From: Myxococcota bacterium
GTDB taxonomy: Bacteria > Myxococcota_A > UBA9160 > PR03
Reading direction: 5' to 3'
Assembly (NCBI GenBank): GCA_041577695.1
Contig: JBFGIM010000002.1
Span: 1-55,299, forward strand
Length of the DNA: 55,299 nt
The position numbers were made by a program, and so were the translations under genes. A model generated the notes under the pieces. The model was not told the DNA's origin. It saw nothing but the letters and a program-made list of their open reading frames with translations, and ran no database searches. Shown in pieces: positions 34,439 through 41,830 of the stretch. Position 1 is the first letter of the stretch; the number at the start of each line of letters is the position of its first letter.

Positions 34439-34455
34439 AGCAACGCTCGTGCCAG
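34439..34455 (-). promoter_or_regulatory. sigma54 (-24/-12) promoter of pilA
   Basis: The minus strand reads CTGGCACGAGCGTTGCT, a perfect TGGCAC-N5-TTGC. It lies about 140 nt upstream of the pilA ATG. Confidence 0.75.
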
Positions 34456-34676: not shown

Positions 34677-37600
34677 ATGACCCGACGCTGGTTGCTGATC
34701 GGCTGTCTCGTCTTCTCGGGAATGGCCGCGCTGGTGTACCAGATCGTCTGGACGCGGCTGCTGGGCCTCTCCTTCGGGACCACCACCGAGGCGATCGGCA
34801 CCGTGCTCGCGGTCTTCTTCGGCGGGCTGGCACTCGGCAACCTGTTGGCGGCGCGCACGCTCGATCGGATCCGGCGACCGCTCCGGGTCTACGCCTGGCT
34901 CGAGCTGGGCATCGGCGCCTTCGCGCTCGCCAGCCTGCCGCTGCTGCTGCGGCTCGACGACGTCTTCGCCTGGGTGGGCGCCGACCACGGGCCCTGGGCG
35001 ATGACCGCCATCCGCGCCGGCGTCGCCGCCGTCGTGCTGCTGCCGCCCACCGCCGCCATGGGCGCCACGCTGCCCGTGGTGGCCCGCGGCCTCGTCGAGC
35101 AGGACGCCACGCTGGGGCGCTGGAGCGCCTGGCTCTACACGGCCAACACCTTCGGCGCCGTGCTGGGCGCCTACCTGTGCGGCTTCTGGGCGATTCCCCA
35201 GCTGGGCCTCACGCACACCGTATGGACCGCCAGCGCCGTCAACCTGGGCGTGGCAGCCCTGGTGCTGCTGGGCGCAGGCGGCCTGCGATCCGCGCCGGCC
35301 CTGGCGGCGGCGCCATCCAACCTCGTGGAGTCGGCTGCGCCCGCCCGCGGGCGCGGCTGGTTCCTGCTCTTCTTCGGCATCTCGGGCTTCGTGGCGATCG
35401 GCTACGAGATCGTCTGGTCGAAGATCTTCTCGATCGTGATGGAGGGGACGCTCTACGGCTTCGCGGCGGTGCTCTCCACCTATCTGCTGGGCATCGGCCT
35501 GGGCAGCCTGGCGGTTTCGCGCTGGGTGGACCGGGTGCGCGACCTGCCCCGCCTCTTCGGCCTGCTCCACCTGGCCATCGGCGCCAGCGTCGCGCTCGGA
35601 ATGTTCTGCGTGCCGCTGCTCCCCTTTGCGTTCCAGTCGCTGGCGCGTTGGGCGGGCAGCGAGGACGCCGTTCACCTGCTGCTGTTGCTGGTGGCGCCCC
35701 TGATCCTGGTGCCCACGGCGCTCTTCGGTGCGGCCTTCCCGGTGTTGATCCGCATCTATGCGCGCCGCGCCGACCGGGTCGGCCAGGGCATGGGTGTGGC
35801 CACCGCGGTGAACACCGCGGGCAGCATCGCCAGCAGCCTCCTGGTGGGCTTCGTCTGGATCCCGGAGCTCGGCATCGACGCGAGCCTCTACCTGTTGCTG
35901 ATGATCGACCTAGGCGTCGGCTTCCTGGTCGTACTCGCCTTCCGCGACGAGGGCGGGGCGCGACGGCTGACCACCGGCGGCGCCGGCCTGCTGCTGGCGG
36001 CGGTGGCGCTCTCCTACAACGGCGTGCGGGTGGAGCAGGCGGTGGCCGGACGCTGGCTCGCCGCGCCGACCCTGGCGCTGTACCGGGCCGGCCTCGGGCA
36101 GGCGACCGACGAGACCGAGTGGATCGCCGAGGGCCGCACCTCGATCGTGACGGTGCACGAGAACGCCTGGGGTCGGCGCTTGCGCACCAACGGCATGCCC
36201 GAAGCGGGTCGCCGCTTCTCGGCCCCGCACTTCTCGTTGGAGAGCCAGCTGCTGGGCGCGCTGCCCTACCTGCTGGCCGAGGAGCCGCACCGCGCGCTCG
36301 CGATCGGCTACGGAGGCGGAGCCACCGTCAGCGCGCTCGCCCAGACCGACGTCGAGACGATCCGCGTGGTCGAGCTCGAGGAGCGGGTGATCGAGGCGGC
36401 TCGGCTGCTCCATCCGGCCCAGGAGGATCCGCAGCGCGACCCGCGGGTCGAGGTGCGCATCAACGACGGCCGCAACGAGCTGCTGATGGAGCGCTATCGC
36501 GACGCCCCGCGCTGGGACCTGATCTCCTCGCAGCCGAGCCACCCCTGGCTGATGGGCGCCGCGAACCTCTTCACCGAGGAGTATTTCGATCTGATTCGCG
36601 AGCGGCTCACACGCGGCGGCGTCTTCGCGCTCTGGGTGAACGGCTTCCGCACCGACCCAGAGTCGGTGCTCGCGATCCTGACCAGCTTCGAGCGGATCCT
36701 GCCGGGCGGCGTCGTGCTGGCCGGCGGCGGTTCGGACGCGCGCTCGTCCCTGCTGCTGCTCGGTGGCCGCAAGCCGCTGGTGTGGGATCTCGACCGGATG
36801 TCGGAGCGGCTGGCGGAGCCGGCGCTGGCGGCGCGGCTCGAGCAGCACGGTGTTCGGAGCGTGGCGCAGCTGCTGGCCCGGGCGGAGGGGCCCGTCGACG
36901 TATTCGCGCGGCTCGAGCCGACGGCGGCCAACACCGACGACAACGCCTTCATCGAGACCCGCGTGCCGCGACGGCTCGCCTGGGAGAACCTGGAGTTCGC
37001 GGCGATCGAGACGCGGGTGGCGCCGGACGCGCCGCTGCTGCCTCCCGTCCGGGGTTCGGCCGACGTGACCGAGGTGGCCCGGGCGATCCTCGAGCTGCCC
37101 GCCGGCCCCGGTGCCTGGCCCTACGCCGCCAAGCTCGACCGCCTGCTGCGCGTCCACGGCGCCGCTGCGCCGGCCCACGAGCGGGTGCTGCTCGCCGCCA
37201 TGGGCGCGTTGCGCGACCCGGCCCGCGCGAACGCGGGCGTCGAAGCGCTTCGCAAGCTGGCGGCCCGAGCGCCGGACGATCCCGAACCGCTCCGGCAGCT
37301 CGGTCTCCATTGGGGCGCCCGCACCCGTGAGTACGCCGCGGCGGCCGCTGCCTTCGAAGCCGCCTGGCAACGCTCGGGCGCGGCGCGCGACGCCTACGAC
37401 GCGGCCCGCTCTTGGCATCATCTCGACCCCGAACGCGCCTGGCAGTGGGCAGCGCGCGTCGGGGCCGCCGAGCGTCACCACTTTCCGCGGCTCGCGCTCT
37501 ACGATGCCGAGCGCGCGCTGGCCGAGGGCGCTCCGCCCGAGGCACTCGAGATTCGCTACCGCGATCTGCTCGCGTACCGCGCCACTGACGCGGGACGCGG

Positions 37601-37988
37601 ACTGCCCGGCGTGGACGCCACCCTCGCCAGCCTCGCCGACGCCCTGGGCCTCACGACCGCCGCGCGCGGCTTCCGCGATGCGGATCGCGAGCTGCGCCAG
37701 TCGAGCGTGGAGCCGCTGCTCCAGCAGGCGCGCCGGGAGCTCGGCGCGGGAAATCCGGACGCCGCGGAGCAGCGGGTGAACGAGGCGCGTGCCCTGGTTC
37801 CCGGATACCGCCCGACCCTCGAGCTTGCGGCGGAGATCGCCGCGCAGCGTCGCGACCGGTCCGCCTTCGAGGAAGTGCTCGACAGCGCCGCGCGCTGGGC
37901 CCCTACCCGCGCCGCGGGGATCTCGACCCAGATCCGCTGGCGCGAGCGCTGGGACTGGCAGCCGGTAGCGCCCGCGAGCCGCGGTTGA
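34677..37988 (+). CDS. fused polytopic membrane / spermidine-synthase-like methyltransferase-fold / TPR protein (1103 aa)
   Basis: ATG preceded by GGAGGG. The N-terminal roughly 420 aa has many TM helices. The middle has an IGYGGGAT...VVELE...INDGRN...DLISSQPSHPW SpeE-like fold. The C-terminal part is TPR-like helical repeats. Confidence 0.85.
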   Translation: MTRRWLLIGCLVFSGMAALVYQIVWTRLLGLSFGTTTEAIGTVLAVFFGGLALGNLLAARTLDRIRRPLRVYAWLELGIGAFALASLPLLLRLDDVFAWVGADHGPWAMTAIRAGVAAVVLLPPTAAMGATLPVVARGLVEQDATLGRWSAWLYTANTFGAVLGAYLCGFWAIPQLGLTHTVWTASAVNLGVAALVLLGAGGLRSAPALAAAPSNLVESAAPARGRGWFLLFFGISGFVAIGYEIVWSKIFSIVMEGTLYGFAAVLSTYLLGIGLGSLAVSRWVDRVRDLPRLFGLLHLAIGASVALGMFCVPLLPFAFQSLARWAGSEDAVHLLLLLVAPLILVPTALFGAAFPVLIRIYARRADRVGQGMGVATAVNTAGSIASSLLVGFVWIPELGIDASLYLLLMIDLGVGFLVVLAFRDEGGARRLTTGGAGLLLAAVALSYNGVRVEQAVAGRWLAAPTLALYRAGLGQATDETEWIAEGRTSIVTVHENAWGRRLRTNGMPEAGRRFSAPHFSLESQLLGALPYLLAEEPHRALAIGYGGGATVSALAQTDVETIRVVELEERVIEAARLLHPAQEDPQRDPRVEVRINDGRNELLMERYRDAPRWDLISSQPSHPWLMGAANLFTEEYFDLIRERLTRGGVFALWVNGFRTDPESVLAILTSFERILPGGVVLAGGGSDARSSLLLLGGRKPLVWDLDRMSERLAEPALAARLEQHGVRSVAQLLARAEGPVDVFARLEPTAANTDDNAFIETRVPRRLAWENLEFAAIETRVAPDAPLLPPVRGSADVTEVARAILELPAGPGAWPYAAKLDRLLRVHGAAAPAHERVLLAAMGALRDPARANAGVEALRKLAARAPDDPEPLRQLGLHWGARTREYAAAAAAFEAAWQRSGAARDAYDAARSWHHLDPERAWQWAARVGAAERHHFPRLALYDAERALAEGAPPEALEIRYRDLLAYRATDAGRGLPGVDATLASLADALGLTTAARGFRDADRELRQSSVEPLLQQARRELGAGNPDAAEQRVNEARALVPGYRPTLELAAEIAAQRRDRSAFEEVLDSAARWAPTRAAGISTQIRWRERWDWQPVAPASRG

Positions 37989-38035: not shown

Positions 38036-38111
38036 GCTCCCATCGTCTAGCGGTCTAGGACGTGGCCCTCTCAAGGCCAAGACACGGGTTCGATTCCCGT
38101 TGGGAGCGCCA
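38036..38111 (+). tRNA. tRNA-Glu (anticodon CUC), CCA encoded
   Basis: Hand-folded. Acceptor GCTCCCA/TGGGAGC, D arm GTCT..GGAC, anticodon stem TGGCC/GGCCA with loop CTCTCAA, T arm ACGGG-TTCGATT-CCCGT, then G plus CCA. 76 nt. Confidence 0.9.
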
Positions 38112-38214
38112 CGCCGGAGCCCGGCTCCCGGCGGCGCCTTCCGGTCCACTGAGCGTGCCAACCCCAGGGGAGCTGGCGCGCCCCCGATCGGGGCGGGTGC
38201 ACCGGAGGCTGAGG

Positions 38215-38778
38215 TTGTCCAAGTTCGCGTTCGCCTTCCTGGATTGTGAATTCGGCGGCCTCGACCCCGAGCTCCACGACATCACCGAGATCGGCGTCAT
38301 CACCACCGACTACCGGCTGGCAGAGCTCGACTGCCGCGAATGGAAGGTGCGCGCCCGCCCCGAGCGCATCACCCCGGTCGCCGCCGAGATCTCGGGCTAC
38401 GACGCCAAGGTCTGGGAGGCCGAGGCCGTGCCGGTCCGGAAGATGTTGACCGAGGTGACCGAGATGCTCCCCAAGGGTGTCAAAGTGGTGCCCGCCGGCC
38501 AGAACGTGCGGATGGACGTCCAGTTCCTGGAGCGCGCCTTCAAGCACTGCGAGATCGACTACCCCTTCGACTACCACGTCATCGACCTGGCCACGCTCTT
38601 CTACGCCTGGTCGCTGGTGACCGGTGAGACCGTGCCGGCGCTGTCGCTGCGCCAGGCGGCCACGACGGCCGGGCTGGCCGACGGAGCCGTGCCGCACCGG
38701 GCGCTGGCCGATGCGCGGCTGACGCTCGATGTGTTTCGGCACTACGTGGGGCGGCTGGCGCCGCGGGCAGGAGAGTAG
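38215..38778 (+). CDS. DEDDh 3'-5' exonuclease (DnaQ/epsilon-like), stand-alone
   Basis: TTG at 38215 preceded by GGAGGCTGAGG. ExoI FLDCEFGGLD, ExoII GQNVRMDVQFL, ExoIII HRALADARLT. Confidence 0.8.
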   Translation: MSKFAFAFLDCEFGGLDPELHDITEIGVITTDYRLAELDCREWKVRARPERITPVAAEISGYDAKVWEAEAVPVRKMLTEVTEMLPKGVKVVPAGQNVRMDVQFLERAFKHCEIDYPFDYHVIDLATLFYAWSLVTGETVPALSLRQAATTAGLADGAVPHRALADARLTLDVFRHYVGRLAPRAGE

Positions 38779-38791
38779 GCGGAGAAGTTGC

Positions 38792-38848
38792 CGAGGCGCA
38801 GGCAGCTCTGTGGATCTCCGTTCGCCTGCGGCTCACTGCGCGCGCGGC
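38792..38848 (-). repeat. 57-nt repeat, copy A (inverted relative to B and C)
   Basis: The reverse complement reads ...GCGCGCGCAGTGAGCCGCAGGCGAACGGAGATCCACAGAGCTGCCTGCGCC. It shares GCGCGCGCAG and a 17-nt identical core CGGAGATCCACAGAGCT with copy C. Confidence 0.75.
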
Positions 38849-39061
38849 TCGAGGTGCCGAGACCTCTCCGCTTTCGAGGGCCGCGCTTGCCGGCGGGCAG
38901 CCCCCGAGCCGCAACCCACCCCCAAGCGTCCGTACATCTCCCAAACCCCCCTCGATCCGCGAACGAAGCTCCAACGCAGCCTGGAAGCCGGCGCGAAGGC
39001 AAGCAGGCCTAGGCCGGCAAGCGCCGCCTACAGCTGCACGAAAGCTCTAGTCCGAACGAGC

Positions 39062-39118
39062 GGCGCGCGCAGCGAGGCGAAGCCGAGCGGAGATCCACAA
39101 AGCTTGTGCTCGCACGGC
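39062..39118 (+). repeat. 57-nt repeat, copy B
   Basis: GGCGCGCGCAGCGAGGCGAAGCCGAGCGGAGATCCACAAAGCTTGTGCTCGCACGGC. 54/57 identical to copy C. Confidence 0.85.
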
Positions 39119-39129
39119 AACCCAGCCGC

Positions 39130-39186
39130 GGCGCGCGCAGCGAGGCGAAGCCGAGCGGAGATCCACAGAGCTTGCGCCCGCACGGC
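39130..39186 (+). repeat. 57-nt repeat, copy C (tandem to B, period 68 nt)
   Basis: GGCGCGCGCAGCGAGGCGAAGCCGAGCGGAGATCCACAGAGCTTGCGCCCGCACGGC. Confidence 0.85.
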
Positions 39187-39197
39187 TAGCGCCCGCG

Positions 39198-39767
39198 TCA
39201 TTGCAGCCGATCCTGCCACTTTCGGAGCGCTCCCAGGTCGATCCACGCCAGCAGCGGAAGGATCCACCGGTGCGCCCAGCTTCCCGGGCGAAAGCGGATG
39301 GCGGAGGCGAAGTCGATCAGGATCGGATCGCCGTCCTCGCCGATCATCACGTTGCTGCGATGGCGCAGGTCCAGGTGGACGACGCCCCGCTCGTGCATGC
39401 CCCGGATGGCGCCCTCGAGCGCGGCCGGGAAGCCGGGCGAGATGCGGCCGCGCAGGCGACGCGTCATGCGACGGCCGGGTCGGTACTCGACGGCGAAGGC
39501 GAGCGGGTCGATGGCGCCGATCAGCTGGGGCACGGCCGCGTGGTCGGCCAGCGCGCGGTAGGTCGCCATCTCGTTCCAGATGCTGAAGCGACCCCAGGTC
39601 GAGCGGATCCAGCGGCCGCGCGGCTGGAAGTCCTTGACGACGATGTGCTTGCCGCCGAGGGCCACCAGGTACACGTCGGGATTGCGGCGGTTGCCGCGAT
39701 TCAGCACGGAGACGGTGTGTTTCCCGAGCTCCTCGCGCCGCAGCGGCGCGAGCGGGGCCTCGGTCAC
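39198..39767 (-). CDS. minimal protein-kinase-like fold protein (RIO/Kdo/LPS-kinase-like, 189 aa)
   Basis: GTG start at 39767. Lys in HIVVKDF, Glu in WNEMATYRAL, catalytic-loop-like VVHLDLRHRSNVMI, DFG-like LIDFAS. GC3 is high. Confidence 0.7.
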   Translation of the reverse strand: MTEAPLAPLRREELGKHTVSVLNRGNRRNPDVYLVALGGKHIVVKDFQPRGRWIRSTWGRFSIWNEMATYRALADHAAVPQLIGAIDPLAFAVEYRPGRRMTRRLRGRISPGFPAALEGAIRGMHERGVVHLDLRHRSNVMIGEDGDPILIDFASAIRFRPGSWAHRWILPLLAWIDLGALRKWQDRLQ

Positions 39768-40027
39768 TAGTCGCTCGCGATCGGCGGCTTCCGGTTCCCG
39801 GTCTCGAGCTCCTGGAGCCGGGACCAGAGCCGGGCGCGCAGGCGGGCCTTGAAGAGCGGATCGATCGGCACGGGGCCGTCGGCGGCGTTGACGAACTCGG
39901 CGAACTCCACGGGATCGAAGTCCACGCAGGCATCCGGCCGGGAGTCGACCTCGTGATCGGACCGATGGGAATAACGACTGCGATTGGCCAGTAGCCTACG
40001 CAGACCCCTCGCGATTCCGGGCTTCAC
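39767..40027 (-). CDS. small hypothetical protein (86 aa if GTG 40027; at least the last 52 aa are coding)
   Basis: The 3' part (VDFDPVEFAEFVNAADGPVPIDPLFKARLRARLWSRLQELETGNRKPPIASD) has near-100% GC3. GTG at 40027 is preceded by GGAGGA at 4-5 nt. An alternative GTG at 39925 lacks an SD. The ATG at 40120 is unlikely because GC3 is low there. The stop overlaps the kinase-like start by 1 nt. Confidence 0.5.
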   Translation of the reverse strand: MKPGIARGLRRLLANRSRYSHRSDHEVDSRPDACVDFDPVEFAEFVNAADGPVPIDPLFKARLRARLWSRLQELETGNRKPPIASD

Positions 40028-40311
40028 CAGATCCTCCGCGGGGGGCGGTCCGCAACATACTCGACTCGTACTCGAAGAGACACCGTGCCACTCCCGGTCC
40101 TGGCGGGACTGCCGCATCACCGCCCATGGAATCTCTGCAGGAGGGCTGAACTGCAGATGGGTCGGGGCCGCGGATCTTCATCGAAGCGATGCGTCCCCTG
40201 GAGACGGGTTGCATCGCCATCGACTACTAAGTGGGTCGCAGCACCGATTCGTGGCAGGGTATTGCCGAGAAAACGCCCGAGGGGACCGATTTTTTTCACC
40301 CCAGGGGAATC

Positions 40312-40345
40312 GCCTTCCCCGGGTCGGCGCCTTCCCCGGGTCGGC
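40312..40345. repeat. perfect 17-bp tandem duplication GCCTTCCCCGGGTCGGC x2
   Basis: Read directly at 40312-40328 and 40329-40345, just downstream of the ECF sigma stop codon. Confidence 0.9.
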
Positions 40346-40367
40346 GGGTTGGGACCTCCGCTGGCGC

Positions 40368-41015
40368 CTAGGGCCGGAGGAAGGCCTCGAGACCCGGAGC
40401 CGACTCGGCCAGCGTGCGGCGCATCCGGTAGAGGTTCGCCTTGATGGCGTCCTCGGACTTGCCCAGGGCCTGGGCGATGGCGCGAATGGGCTGCCGGCGC
40501 AGATGCTTCAGGTGGAAGATGCGCCGCTGGAGCGGCGTGAGACGGTCTGCGATGACAGTGTCGCAGCGGTCGAGCATGCGCCGGGCGTCCACGGCGCGCT
40601 CGGTCGAGGGCTCGCGAGCGGGGATCGCCTCGGGGCCGAGGTCGGTCAGCGACTCCAGCCGGGGCCGGTTGCGACGGAAGCGGCGATTGACCTTGTTGCG
40701 GGTCACCCCGAACACCCAGACCAGCAGGCTGGACTCGCCGCGATAGCTCGGCAGCGCCTGGAAGACGGTCTCGAAGACCTCCTGGGTGACGTCCTCGGCT
40801 TCCGCGGGATCGCCGAGTCGCTTGAGGGCGAAGCGGTAGACGCGTGGGAAGTACGACTCGTAGAGCTCGTCGAAATGGGCCCTGCTCCCCGCCAGGATGT
40901 TGCGAACCAGCTCCCGATCGCGCGCGGCGGCCGTGCGCACCGGGTCCGACGAGGCTTCCGAGGGGTTGCTGGTCGCCGGAGGCACGCCAGCGGACGTGGG
41001 GGCCGGGAGGGCCAC
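40368..41015 (-). CDS. ECF-type RNA polymerase sigma-70 family factor
   Basis: Region 2 FDELYESYFPRVYRFALKRLGDPAEAEDVTQEVF. Region 4 LTPLQRRIFHLKHLRRQPIRAIAQALGKSEDAIKANLYRMRRTL. The start is uncertain: GTG at 41015 where GC3 rises, or alternatives at 40940 or 41078. Confidence 0.85.
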   Translation of the reverse strand: MALPAPTSAGVPPATSNPSEASSDPVRTAAARDRELVRNILAGSRAHFDELYESYFPRVYRFALKRLGDPAEAEDVTQEVFETVFQALPSYRGESSLLVWVFGVTRNKVNRRFRRNRPRLESLTDLGPEAIPAREPSTERAVDARRMLDRCDTVIADRLTPLQRRIFHLKHLRRQPIRAIAQALGKSEDAIKANLYRMRRTLAESAPGLEAFLRP

Positions 41016-41153
41016 CCGAAGATGGGGGGGATGATGTCGCACGCGAACCCAAGCTCCCTGGCAGCCGGGTCGCCCCACCGGGGGGGGGCTGGGCGACGCG
41101 GCATGTTGAGGTCTCTCCGAAAAGGGTGGACTCGATGTCCGTTATATCGTTGG

Positions 41154-41170
41154 AGCAATGGGCATGCCAG
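41154..41170 (-). promoter_or_regulatory. sigma54-type (-24/-12) promoter upstream of the ECF sigma gene
   Basis: The minus strand reads CTGGCATGCCCATTGCT, i.e. TGGCAT-N5-TTGCT with correct GG/GC spacing. It lies about 140 nt upstream of GTG 41015. Confidence 0.5.
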
Positions 41171-41347
41171 AGCCGGCGTGGCTTGCAGGTAGCCCCGCAT
41201 CCCCCCTCCCCTGTTGGGGATTTGGCGCTAGCCGCGGGCCGGCCCACGACCGTGGGGGACGCGCGGCGCTAGGTAAAGGTTTGCCCATTCTCGGCAGGGG
41301 GGTTCACCTACGCGCGCGGGTGGCAACGAAGTGGCAGCGGAGCGATC

Positions 41348-41830
41348 TCAGGGAGCGGAGACGCGGCTCGCTTGGCCCGGCTGGATCCACCACTGCCCCG
41401 CCCGGCGCACCCAGCGATCCTCGCGCTCCAGGTGGGTCTTCCACCAGCGCAGTGGCAGGGCGTTATCGCCGCGCAGGTGAACCCGCACGCTCGCCCGGCC
41501 GGGACCGTCCACCAGGAACTCGGCGATCTCGGTGTGGATCGGCCGGCTGCGCTGGAAATGCGCCTCGAGCAGCGCTTCGGCGAGGTCGGCGTAGTAGTCG
41601 GAGAAGGATTCCTCGTCGCGGAAGTACTCGTGCAGCCCGGCATCTCGGAAGGTGACGATGCTGTTGAAGCGACGACCCTCGAGCCGTCGGTAGAACACCG
41701 TGGCGCGCTCGTAGAAGTCCAGCACCCCGGGCGCCTCGACCCGCTCGAGACCCGCCTCCGGATCGGGAAGCGGCGCGTCGGACCCACCCGCGCAGCCGAG
41801 CGCGAGGACCGCAGTCAGCACCAGTGCCAC
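41348..41830 (-). CDS. hypothetical lipoprotein (160 aa)
   Basis: GTG at 41830 preceded by GAGG, 5 nt after the ppdK stop. Lipobox LALGC. GC3 is high. Confidence 0.7.
   Translation of the reverse strand: MALVLTAVLALGCAGGSDAPLPDPEAGLERVEAPGVLDFYERATVFYRRLEGRRFNSIVTFRDAGLHEYFRDEESFSDYYADLAEALLEAHFQRSRPIHTEIAEFLVDGPGRASVRVHLRGDNALPLRWWKTHLEREDRWVRRAGQWWIQPGQASRVSAP

Follow-up and report, generated by a model that had tools for sequence, protein, structure and literature searches.

The 55,299-nt stretch of DNA analysed here (the window; G+C content 71%) comes from a Myxococcota bacterium and carries a locus, with all its genes read on the minus strand, in which a sigma-54-type promoter element, a gene for a sigma factor of the extracytoplasmic function (ECF) type, a 340-nt spacer, a gene for an 86-aa small protein and a gene for a 189-aa minimal kinase follow one another; all five are present. 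We propose, with somewhat better than even confidence, that this locus is a two-tier transcription module carrying a passenger kinase, with the small protein as its sigma-linked partner. An interpretation made earlier from the bare sequence (the sequence-only reading) had seen in the same arrangement an ECF sigma factor controlled by the kinase in place of an anti-sigma factor. The observation is confirmed and the interpretation is partly supported: when the conservation of the three-gene neighbourhood, which that reading had put forward as a check, is followed across related genomes, the small gene stays with the sigma gene and the kinase gene does not.

The comparison set comprised about 90 related loci (L numbers below), made up of 80 genome loci collected by anchoring on the kinase together with loci retrieved by exact-protein look-up, and homologues of the window proteins came nearly all from Myxococcota or 'Deltaproteobacteria' metagenome-assembled genomes (MAGs). 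Judged by sequence comparison with these loci, the elements of the locus exceed what chance would produce. Within the Myxococcota clade the genes are ordered glyS, PPDK, the lipoprotein-like hyp160, (PilZ), sigma1, (sigma2) and the small gene, followed by (a PEMT-like gene, or MBOAT and AlgX-like genes), the kinase gene and a convergent RNase T-family gene, where sigma1 is the ECF sigma gene of the window and sigma2 is a second ECF paralog, about 35% identical to sigma1, that is present in most relatives. The window and six close relatives are without sigma2, PilZ and PEMT genes.

Linkage of the small protein to the sigma genes

A hidden Markov model (HMM) of the small protein identified 54 loci, in 52 of which a sigma gene is adjacent, the other two being cut at a contig end; among loci shown to be without a sigma gene, this search never found the small gene. 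It usually follows sigma2, the paralog missing from the window. The association persists where the remainder of the region has been rearranged. The block formed by the kinase and RNase T genes is inverted or displaced in L005 and L085, and the small gene remains behind the sigma genes; in L088 and L089 there is a 4-nt overlap between the sigma2 stop and the small gene, and in L089 the RNase T gene comes directly after the small gene, with no kinase gene, while sigma2 and the small protein remain. The contig of L088 ends soon after the small gene, so the presence of a kinase gene there cannot be judged, and no kinase gene was called in L090. On co-occurrence and rearrangements, the partner of the small protein is predicted to be the sigma pair. 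Inherited synteny would offer another account, in which the sigma, small and kinase genes are three unrelated units of a housekeeping region and the small protein has nothing to do with sigma factors. The stretch from glyS/PPDK to the RNase T gene is indeed syntenic throughout the clade, the small protein is without detectable domain and the kinase can become detached from the sigma genes, all of which fit such an account; but the strict pairing in the 52 loci, the tracking of the sigma genes through two independent rearrangements, the overlap with the sigma2 stop and the position-specific conserved element 5' of the sigma2/small unit (see below) do not, and we regard synteny by itself as an improbable explanation.

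The length of the small protein, given as either 86 or 52 aa in the sequence-only reading, was settled in favour of the former, because a GGAG sequence and a GTG-AAG-CC start codon context, 5-7 nt apart, are kept in seven related loci in the alignment of spacer and small gene, which places the start at 40027 (Table 1); the 52-aa version is unsupported, as is one of 117 aa. At 90% identity the family forms 109 clusters, and at 50% it has 495 representatives; its members are almost all stand-alone proteins of 50-120 aa. Fusions of the domain to larger proteins were considered, and the few long matches are gene-calling or assembly artefacts. A basic N-terminus precedes an acidic and amphipathic conserved core, (E/D)ELxEFLxAD-x6-DPxFKExLRxxLW, and no conserved Ser or Thr is found across the two sub-families. 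A Pfam search at E up to 10 with 31 family members and a PDB sequence search with the small protein gave no match, and Pfam and NCBIfam revealed an anti-sigma domain neither in the small protein nor in the genes on either side, in line with the earlier statement that no recognisable anti-sigma domain is encoded here. By sequence and profile comparison the protein belongs to none of the known anti-sigma domains (zf-HC2, RskA, RseA_N, NepR and others). A likeness to the RseA N-terminus was ruled out by hhalign against RseA residues 1-70 (probability 0.1), and the hyp160 lipoprotein was rejected as a hidden anti-sigma factor, since its gene is part of the PPDK operon and is still present where sigma genes are lacking (L023/L024). 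The AlphaFold2 (AF2) model of the small protein alone has two helices in an otherwise low-confidence chain (pLDDT 62); it is compatible with folding on binding without being evidence for it. Strict co-occurrence with the sigma genes, position and translational coupling to them make the small protein a candidate anti-sigma or sigma-modulating factor.

Table 1. Features of the sigma/small protein/kinase locus, in positions of the window (ORF, open reading frame).
Feature	Position	Strand	Basis or remark
Sigma-54-type -24/-12 element TGGCATGCCCATTGCT	41154-41169	minus	TGGCAT-N5-TTGCT; pattern match and conservation
Start of leader: hairpin GGACATCGAGTCC, then CCCTTTTCGGAGAG	41113-41140	minus	Alignment of seven close loci
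ECF sigma factor sigma1, about 190 aa	40368-40940	minus	GTG start at 40940; longest ORF to 41078
Internal element TGCCAC-N16-CCACTTAG	40227-40256	minus	Spacer alignment; inside the 340-nt spacer
GGAGG ribosome-binding site of the small gene	40033-40037	minus	GGAG conserved in seven loci
Small soluble protein, 86 aa	39767-40027	minus	GTG start; conserved core EFxEFLxADxxxxxxDPxFKxRLRxxLW; candidate unconventional anti-sigma factor
Minimal protein-kinase-like enzyme, 189 aa	39198-39767	minus	Motifs, AF2 model and homologues

Sigma-54 promoter, sigma factors and internal element

The promoter element reported in the sequence-only reading 5' of the ECF gene is present and strongly conserved. TGGCAY-N5-TTGCW matches the 55-kb window twice, against 0.03 matches expected from shuffled sequence, and TGGCAY-N5-TTGC(T) occurs within 500 nt 5' of the conserved part of the sigma1 gene in 53 of the 56 loci with an orthologous sigma1, and slightly past 500 nt upstream in two more. 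The flanking sequence has diverged between loci and the element itself has been kept. Its GG and GC doublets, their exact spacing (as in TGGCAC-N5-TTGCW) and the location 5' of a gene are those of a sigma-54 promoter, presumably an active one, and comparative support for a functional promoter at this position is strong. An enhancer-binding protein, sought as an ORF with a GAFTGA motif, was found neither in the 55-kb window nor in the first 84 related loci, and scans of 38700-41400 for sigma-70 promoters and intrinsic terminators found none. About 200 nt of leader separate the promoter from the sigma1 GTG. The first 30 nt or so of this leader, where a sigma-54 transcript would begin, consist of a short hairpin and a U-rich stretch conserved within the sub-clade of the window, which could serve in mRNA stabilisation or attenuation. 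The second perfect sigma-54 element of the window, TGGCACGAGCGTTGCT, lies at 34439-34454 on the minus strand; an equivalent site is found again in most related loci, and in L001-L004, for which genes were called, it lies just 5' of a gene for a pilin-like (N_methyl) protein.

The identification of sigma1 as an ECF sigma factor was borne out by matches of the ORF at 40368-41078 to Sigma70_r2 (3.4e-17) and Sigma70_r4_2 (1.8e-6) in Pfam and to TIGR02937 (97 bits, cutoff 42.9). Having sigma-2 and sigma-4 domains only and a length within the 170-200 aa or so of such proteins, it is a group 4 (ECF) member of the sigma-70 family, and no specific NCBIfam ECF subgroup scored above its own cutoff. The start is probably at 40940, since in the alignment with close relatives the conserved part of the protein sets in near residue 47 of the longest ORF, at a point where a GTG is found repeatedly. 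Syntenic orthologues are 56-81% identical to sigma1, and all of them conserve the acidic EAED motif of region 2.2; the Thr that comes next after EAED is Ser or Ala in some of them. One sub-clade has a TetR-family gene in place of sigma2 between sigma1 and the small gene (L051, 6110-6811; also L032, L040, L042, L052, L054 and L056).

The spacer of 340 nt described in the sequence-only reading does exist, running from the sigma stop (40368) to the start of the small protein (40027), and it also carries a conserved promoter-like element. As an RNA the spacer is unremarkable, with no Rfam match and an ordinary fold (z = -0.94). The internal element was counted across 2.2 Mb of loci, taking as strong a match at 12 or more of its 14 positions. 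Half of the 48 strong matches (24) fall within about 490 nt after sigma1 and five more, all with a 16-nt spacer, are located between the two sigma genes of L085-L089, so that 29 of the 48 lie in a short stretch after sigma1; the remaining matches are mostly inside coding sequence. A T-rich stretch is often found 5' of the element in relatives, and where sigma2 is present the element precedes it. Most likely this is a promoter of the downstream unit, possibly of ECF type; a regulator-binding site formed by two GCCAC repeats 22 bp apart would fit equally well. The small protein might also be a positive factor, acting as co-activator of sigma, as adaptor that binds RNA polymerase or as chaperone of the ECF pair, with the TGCCAC/CCAC repeat as the site of a separate DNA-binding regulator. 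The repeat structure of the element, the TetR gene standing in this position in one sub-clade, and the combination of a basic N-terminus with an acidic, amphipathic core in the small protein would all agree with this; a small gene directly 3' of an ECF gene is, however, the classic anti-sigma layout, and we consider a positive role unlikely.

The minimal kinase and its genomic partners

As stated in the sequence-only reading, the start of the kinase gene overlaps the stop of the small gene by one nucleotide: the two share one base, as read directly in the sequence (GTG at 39767-39765, TAG at 39769-39767). Homologues of the kinase number more than 700, at about 200 aa each, and share the motifs VVKDF, RE, HLDLRHRSN and LIDF; the motifs of the window protein, VVKDF, NE, HLDLRHRSN and IDF, are invariant or nearly so in 28 of them. 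An RGASRPT motif ends the C-terminal tail of many homologues, and the window protein stops before this tail. No family is matched at its curated threshold. The score for Pkinase in Pfam is 23 bits against a cutoff of 31.7, and the matches among the 28 homologues are all weak (Pkinase 28, APH 15, ABC1 11, Kdo 10, RIO1 4). The Kdo/WaaP lipopolysaccharide (LPS) kinase family, PF06293, gave no match to the window kinase, and its weak matches to 10 of the 28 homologues reach 0.005 at best; NCBIfam PRK12274 matches weakly (1e-10), far under its cutoff. In the AF2 model (pLDDT 91, pTM 0.86) an N-lobe leads into a catalytic core, and one helix at the C-terminus is all that comes after the DFG-like motif, there being neither an activation loop nor a substrate-binding C-lobe; with the activation segment and the C-lobe missing and the Pfam score below threshold, the protein is not a Hanks-type Ser/Thr kinase. 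The model gave 1235 kinase matches in the PDB at E up to 0.001, the nearest structures being LanKC kinase domains, RIO2, PknB and PRPK/Bud32 (TM about 0.6), and a beta-3 Lys, an alpha-C Glu, the catalytic-loop Asp and Asn and a metal-binding Asp place it in the protein-kinase-like fold. Of the earlier description as a RIO/Kdo-like mini-kinase, the minimal fold of RIO/Bud32 size thus stands on the model and its structural matches, and a specific grouping with Kdo/WaaP kinases does not.

The kinase start overlaps the stop of whatever gene precedes it. A PEMT-like gene lies directly 5' of the kinase gene in Myxococcota, Thermodesulfobacteriota and Planctomycetia. The 16 Thermodesulfobacteriota-type loci, without exception, and a single Planctomycetia locus have the kinase gene directly after a PEMT-like gene and no sigma gene; in a Victivallales locus (L079) the PEMT-like gene is just 3' of the kinase gene. 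The full cluster of WaaP-like LPS kinase, ArnT-like PMT, GT2, LAB_N, PEMT and kinase genes, with domains confirmed by Pfam, is present in 6 of the 16 Thermodesulfobacteriota-type loci, and four more have most of it, the rest being cut short or having other neighbours. Its carriers are Thermodesulfobacteriota and Syntrophaceae MAGs (L063-L076, e.g. L070, 4374-8612). Three Lysobacter relatives of the kinase (34-37% identity) adjoin speE, with no sigma gene, and two of them face an Acyl_transf_3 gene. Within the Myxococcota, the kinase gene occurs without a sigma gene after a spermine-synthase-like gene in L004/L015 and after hyp160 in L023/L024, and MBOAT and AlgX-like genes take the place of the PEMT-like gene in L001, L002 and L008. 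Because the PEMT pairing is conserved and LPS-type clusters carry the kinase without a sigma gene, its deep partners appear to be the PEMT-like methyltransferase and envelope-modification genes. Genomic context, rather than the fold, points to an envelope lipid or glycolipid as the putative substrate.

These distributions bear directly on the proposal of the sequence-only reading that the mini-kinase replaces an anti-sigma factor, phosphorylating the ECF sigma factor or its partner, with or through the small protein, as in ECF43. Several features would suit it: the small and kinase genes are translationally coupled in the window, the order from sigma to kinase is kept in most loci of the Myxococcota clade, the catalytic residues are all intact, in one Victivallales locus 2 kb separate the genes for kinase and PEMT from another ECF pair, and several ECF groups without anti-sigma factors are tied to Ser/Thr kinases (PMC8999054, PMC7826278). 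The linkage breaks, however, both within and beyond the Myxococcota, since loci of Thermodesulfobacteriota, Planctomycetia and Lysobacter, as well as L004/L015 and L023/L024, have the kinase but no sigma gene, and sigma and small protein are found without a kinase or with it on the opposite strand. Sequence and structure also weigh against it: in region 2, where that reading had suggested a search for a phosphorylatable Thr or Ser, EAED is kept (region 2.2) and the neighbouring Thr is variable, the small protein offers no Ser or Thr shared by its two sub-families, and the kinase is without the activation loop and the C-lobe with which substrates are bound. Retention of EAED together with the broken sigma-kinase linkage makes direct control of the sigma factor by the kinase very unlikely. 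Two outcomes had been named beforehand as telling against kinase control, namely a kinase that groups with LPS-core/Kdo kinases in LPS loci and is not consistently adjacent to the ECF gene, and a small ORF that encodes a standard anti-sigma domain; the first largely came about for the kinase, and the second did not, the small ORF having no standard anti-sigma domain.

Further observations concern the surroundings of the kinase gene. In the Victivallales MAG (L079, 7950-11979) a different ECF sigma gene is found about 2 kb downstream of the kinase and PEMT-like genes, and the gene after that sigma gene has a Cys-rich N-terminus that resembles, by appearance, a zinc-binding anti-sigma domain. 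The slot between the small gene and the kinase/RNase T genes is filled by envelope-related genes that vary by lineage: MBOAT and AlgX-like genes, a PEMT-like gene or a sulfatase gene (examples are L001, 3403-6004, and L085, 7456-8811). A 1103-aa spermine-synthase-like protein is encoded at 34677-37988 on the plus strand of the window, and many Myxococcota loci have its gene in the vicinity of the kinase/RNase T block; the gene is directly 5' of the kinase gene in L004/L015 (L004, 2586-5936), and an ordinary speE directly precedes the kinase homologue in Lysobacter (L081, 6869-7723), so that the presence of a spermine-synthase-type gene beside the kinase may be a recurrent link or a coincidence. 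An Rfam scan of the whole window returned two tRNAs as its sole matches. The RNase T-family gene, in its longest ORF (38062-38778, plus strand), overlaps one of them, tRNA-Glu (CTC) at 38036-38111 on the plus strand; the Pfam match of this ORF begins at residue 59, and the real start therefore lies 3' of the tRNA gene.

A proposed two-tier module and its known counterparts

A sigma-54 promoter requires an enhancer-binding activator. In the two-tier module that we favour, an activator encoded elsewhere would act, as the first tier, on the sigma-54 promoter, which would drive the ECF sigma gene by way of the leader of about 200 nt. In the second tier, TGCCAC-N16-CCACTTAG in the spacer would most likely start the downstream transcript, which in most relatives would encode the second ECF paralog, the small protein, the PEMT-like membrane methyltransferase and the mini-kinase, and in the lineage of the window the small protein and the kinase only. 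The small protein would be soluble and largely disordered until it folds on binding, and would act as an unconventional anti-sigma or sigma-modulating factor. The kinase would be an output (cargo) gene at the operon end and not a regulator of sigma, and would normally join the PEMT-like enzyme in modifying a lipid or glycolipid of the envelope, a role suggested by the PEMT pairing in four bacterial lineages and by the LPS-type clusters. We put forward only tentatively, and hold as rather doubtful, the broader claim that the small proteins, in about 500 clusters, represent a novel kind of soluble anti-sigma or sigma-modulating protein dedicated to a sigma-54-triggered ECF pair in uncultured Myxococcota and, in addition, that the operon delivers an uncharacterised envelope modification by the kinase and a PEMT/ICMT-like enzyme. 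If this were true, a lipid or glycolipid would receive a phosphate from the minimal kinase and be methylated by the PEMT/ICMT-like enzyme; Thermodesulfobacteriota, Planctomycetia and Victivallales have this pair as well.

Several points weigh against the two-tier module. The small protein is unlike every known anti-sigma domain, the RseA_N profile included, and its proposed tie to the sigma factors comes from co-occurrence and gene order; in the TetR-containing sub-clade, moreover, the TetR gene separates it from sigma1. The region from PPDK to the RNase T gene is syntenic in the clade, and adjacency is therefore weak evidence for function. Textbook ECF promoter motifs are AAC and CGT, which the internal element does not resemble, and it could be a binding site made of the two GCCAC repeats. 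The kinase sequence does not group specifically with Kdo/WaaP kinases. Finally, the TGCCAC-N16-CCACCTAG element gave only background scores 5' of kinase genes detached from the sigma operon, and membership of the kinase in the regulon is therefore not general.

With respect to known systems, the cascade from sigma-54 to an ECF sigma factor, taken as undescribed in the sequence-only reading, has precedents in HrpL (ECF32) of Pseudomonas syringae, whose sigma-54-dependent gene is activated by HrpRS (PMC8999054), and in the sigma-54-dependent, QseF-activated rpoEP2 of E. coli (PMC6358824). HrpL-like, transcriptionally controlled ECF sigma factors have activator genes beside them and no anti-sigma partner. 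By gene context the present locus is not HrpL-like: hrpRS adjoins hrpL, whereas here neither the window nor the first 84 related loci have an adjacent gene for a GAFTGA enhancer-binding protein, and the sigma gene is followed by a conserved small partner and usually by a second ECF paralog. What had been supposed to be a kinase-regulated ECF sigma factor thereby becomes a conserved sigma-54-to-ECF cascade in uncultured Myxococcota, which is more ordinary and better defined; what is new is not the kind of cascade but two uncharacterised families with testable roles.

In ECF43 sigma factors, the acidic DAED of region 2.2 has been lost and a phospho-acceptor Ser or Thr is found there (PMC8999054). 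The locus shares with EcfP/PknT and EcfK/PknS an ECF sigma factor without recognisable anti-sigma domain and a kinase-fold gene nearby. It differs from them in retaining the acidic EAED, in having a 189-aa minimal fold in place of a Hanks kinase, and in a sigma-kinase linkage that is unconserved beyond one clade and broken within it, so that neither the loss of the acidic motif nor the conserved adjacent Ser/Thr kinase gene of ECF43 is found. For inference from gene neighbourhoods this is a caution, as adjacency in one clade can hint at a regulatory link that is lost in more distant genomes.

The mini-kinase resembles RIO2, Bud32/PRPK, LanKC, Kdo/WaaP and PRK12274 proteins in having an N-lobe and catalytic core only, with the key residues present, and Kdo/WaaP kinases further in that its distant relatives occur in LPS-type clusters beside a WaaP-like kinase. 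Unlike all of these, its gene is consistently paired with that of a PEMT/ICMT-like methyltransferase, and to our knowledge no such pairing has been described for those families. A PEMT-like partner in four bacterial lineages, together with the LPS-type clusters, is what the comparison adds for this minimal kinase. The small protein, for its part, is like NepR, CnrY and the RseA N-terminal domain a short protein that is encoded directly after an ECF gene, strictly linked to sigma, and predicted by its model to be mostly disordered with two helices; unlike them, it shows no sequence or profile similarity, has no PhyR-like partner and carries no membrane anchor. Such a sigma-linked protein is invisible to current anti-sigma detection, and the authors of the ECF classification have themselves considered that undetected soluble anti-sigma variants probably exist (PMC7826278).

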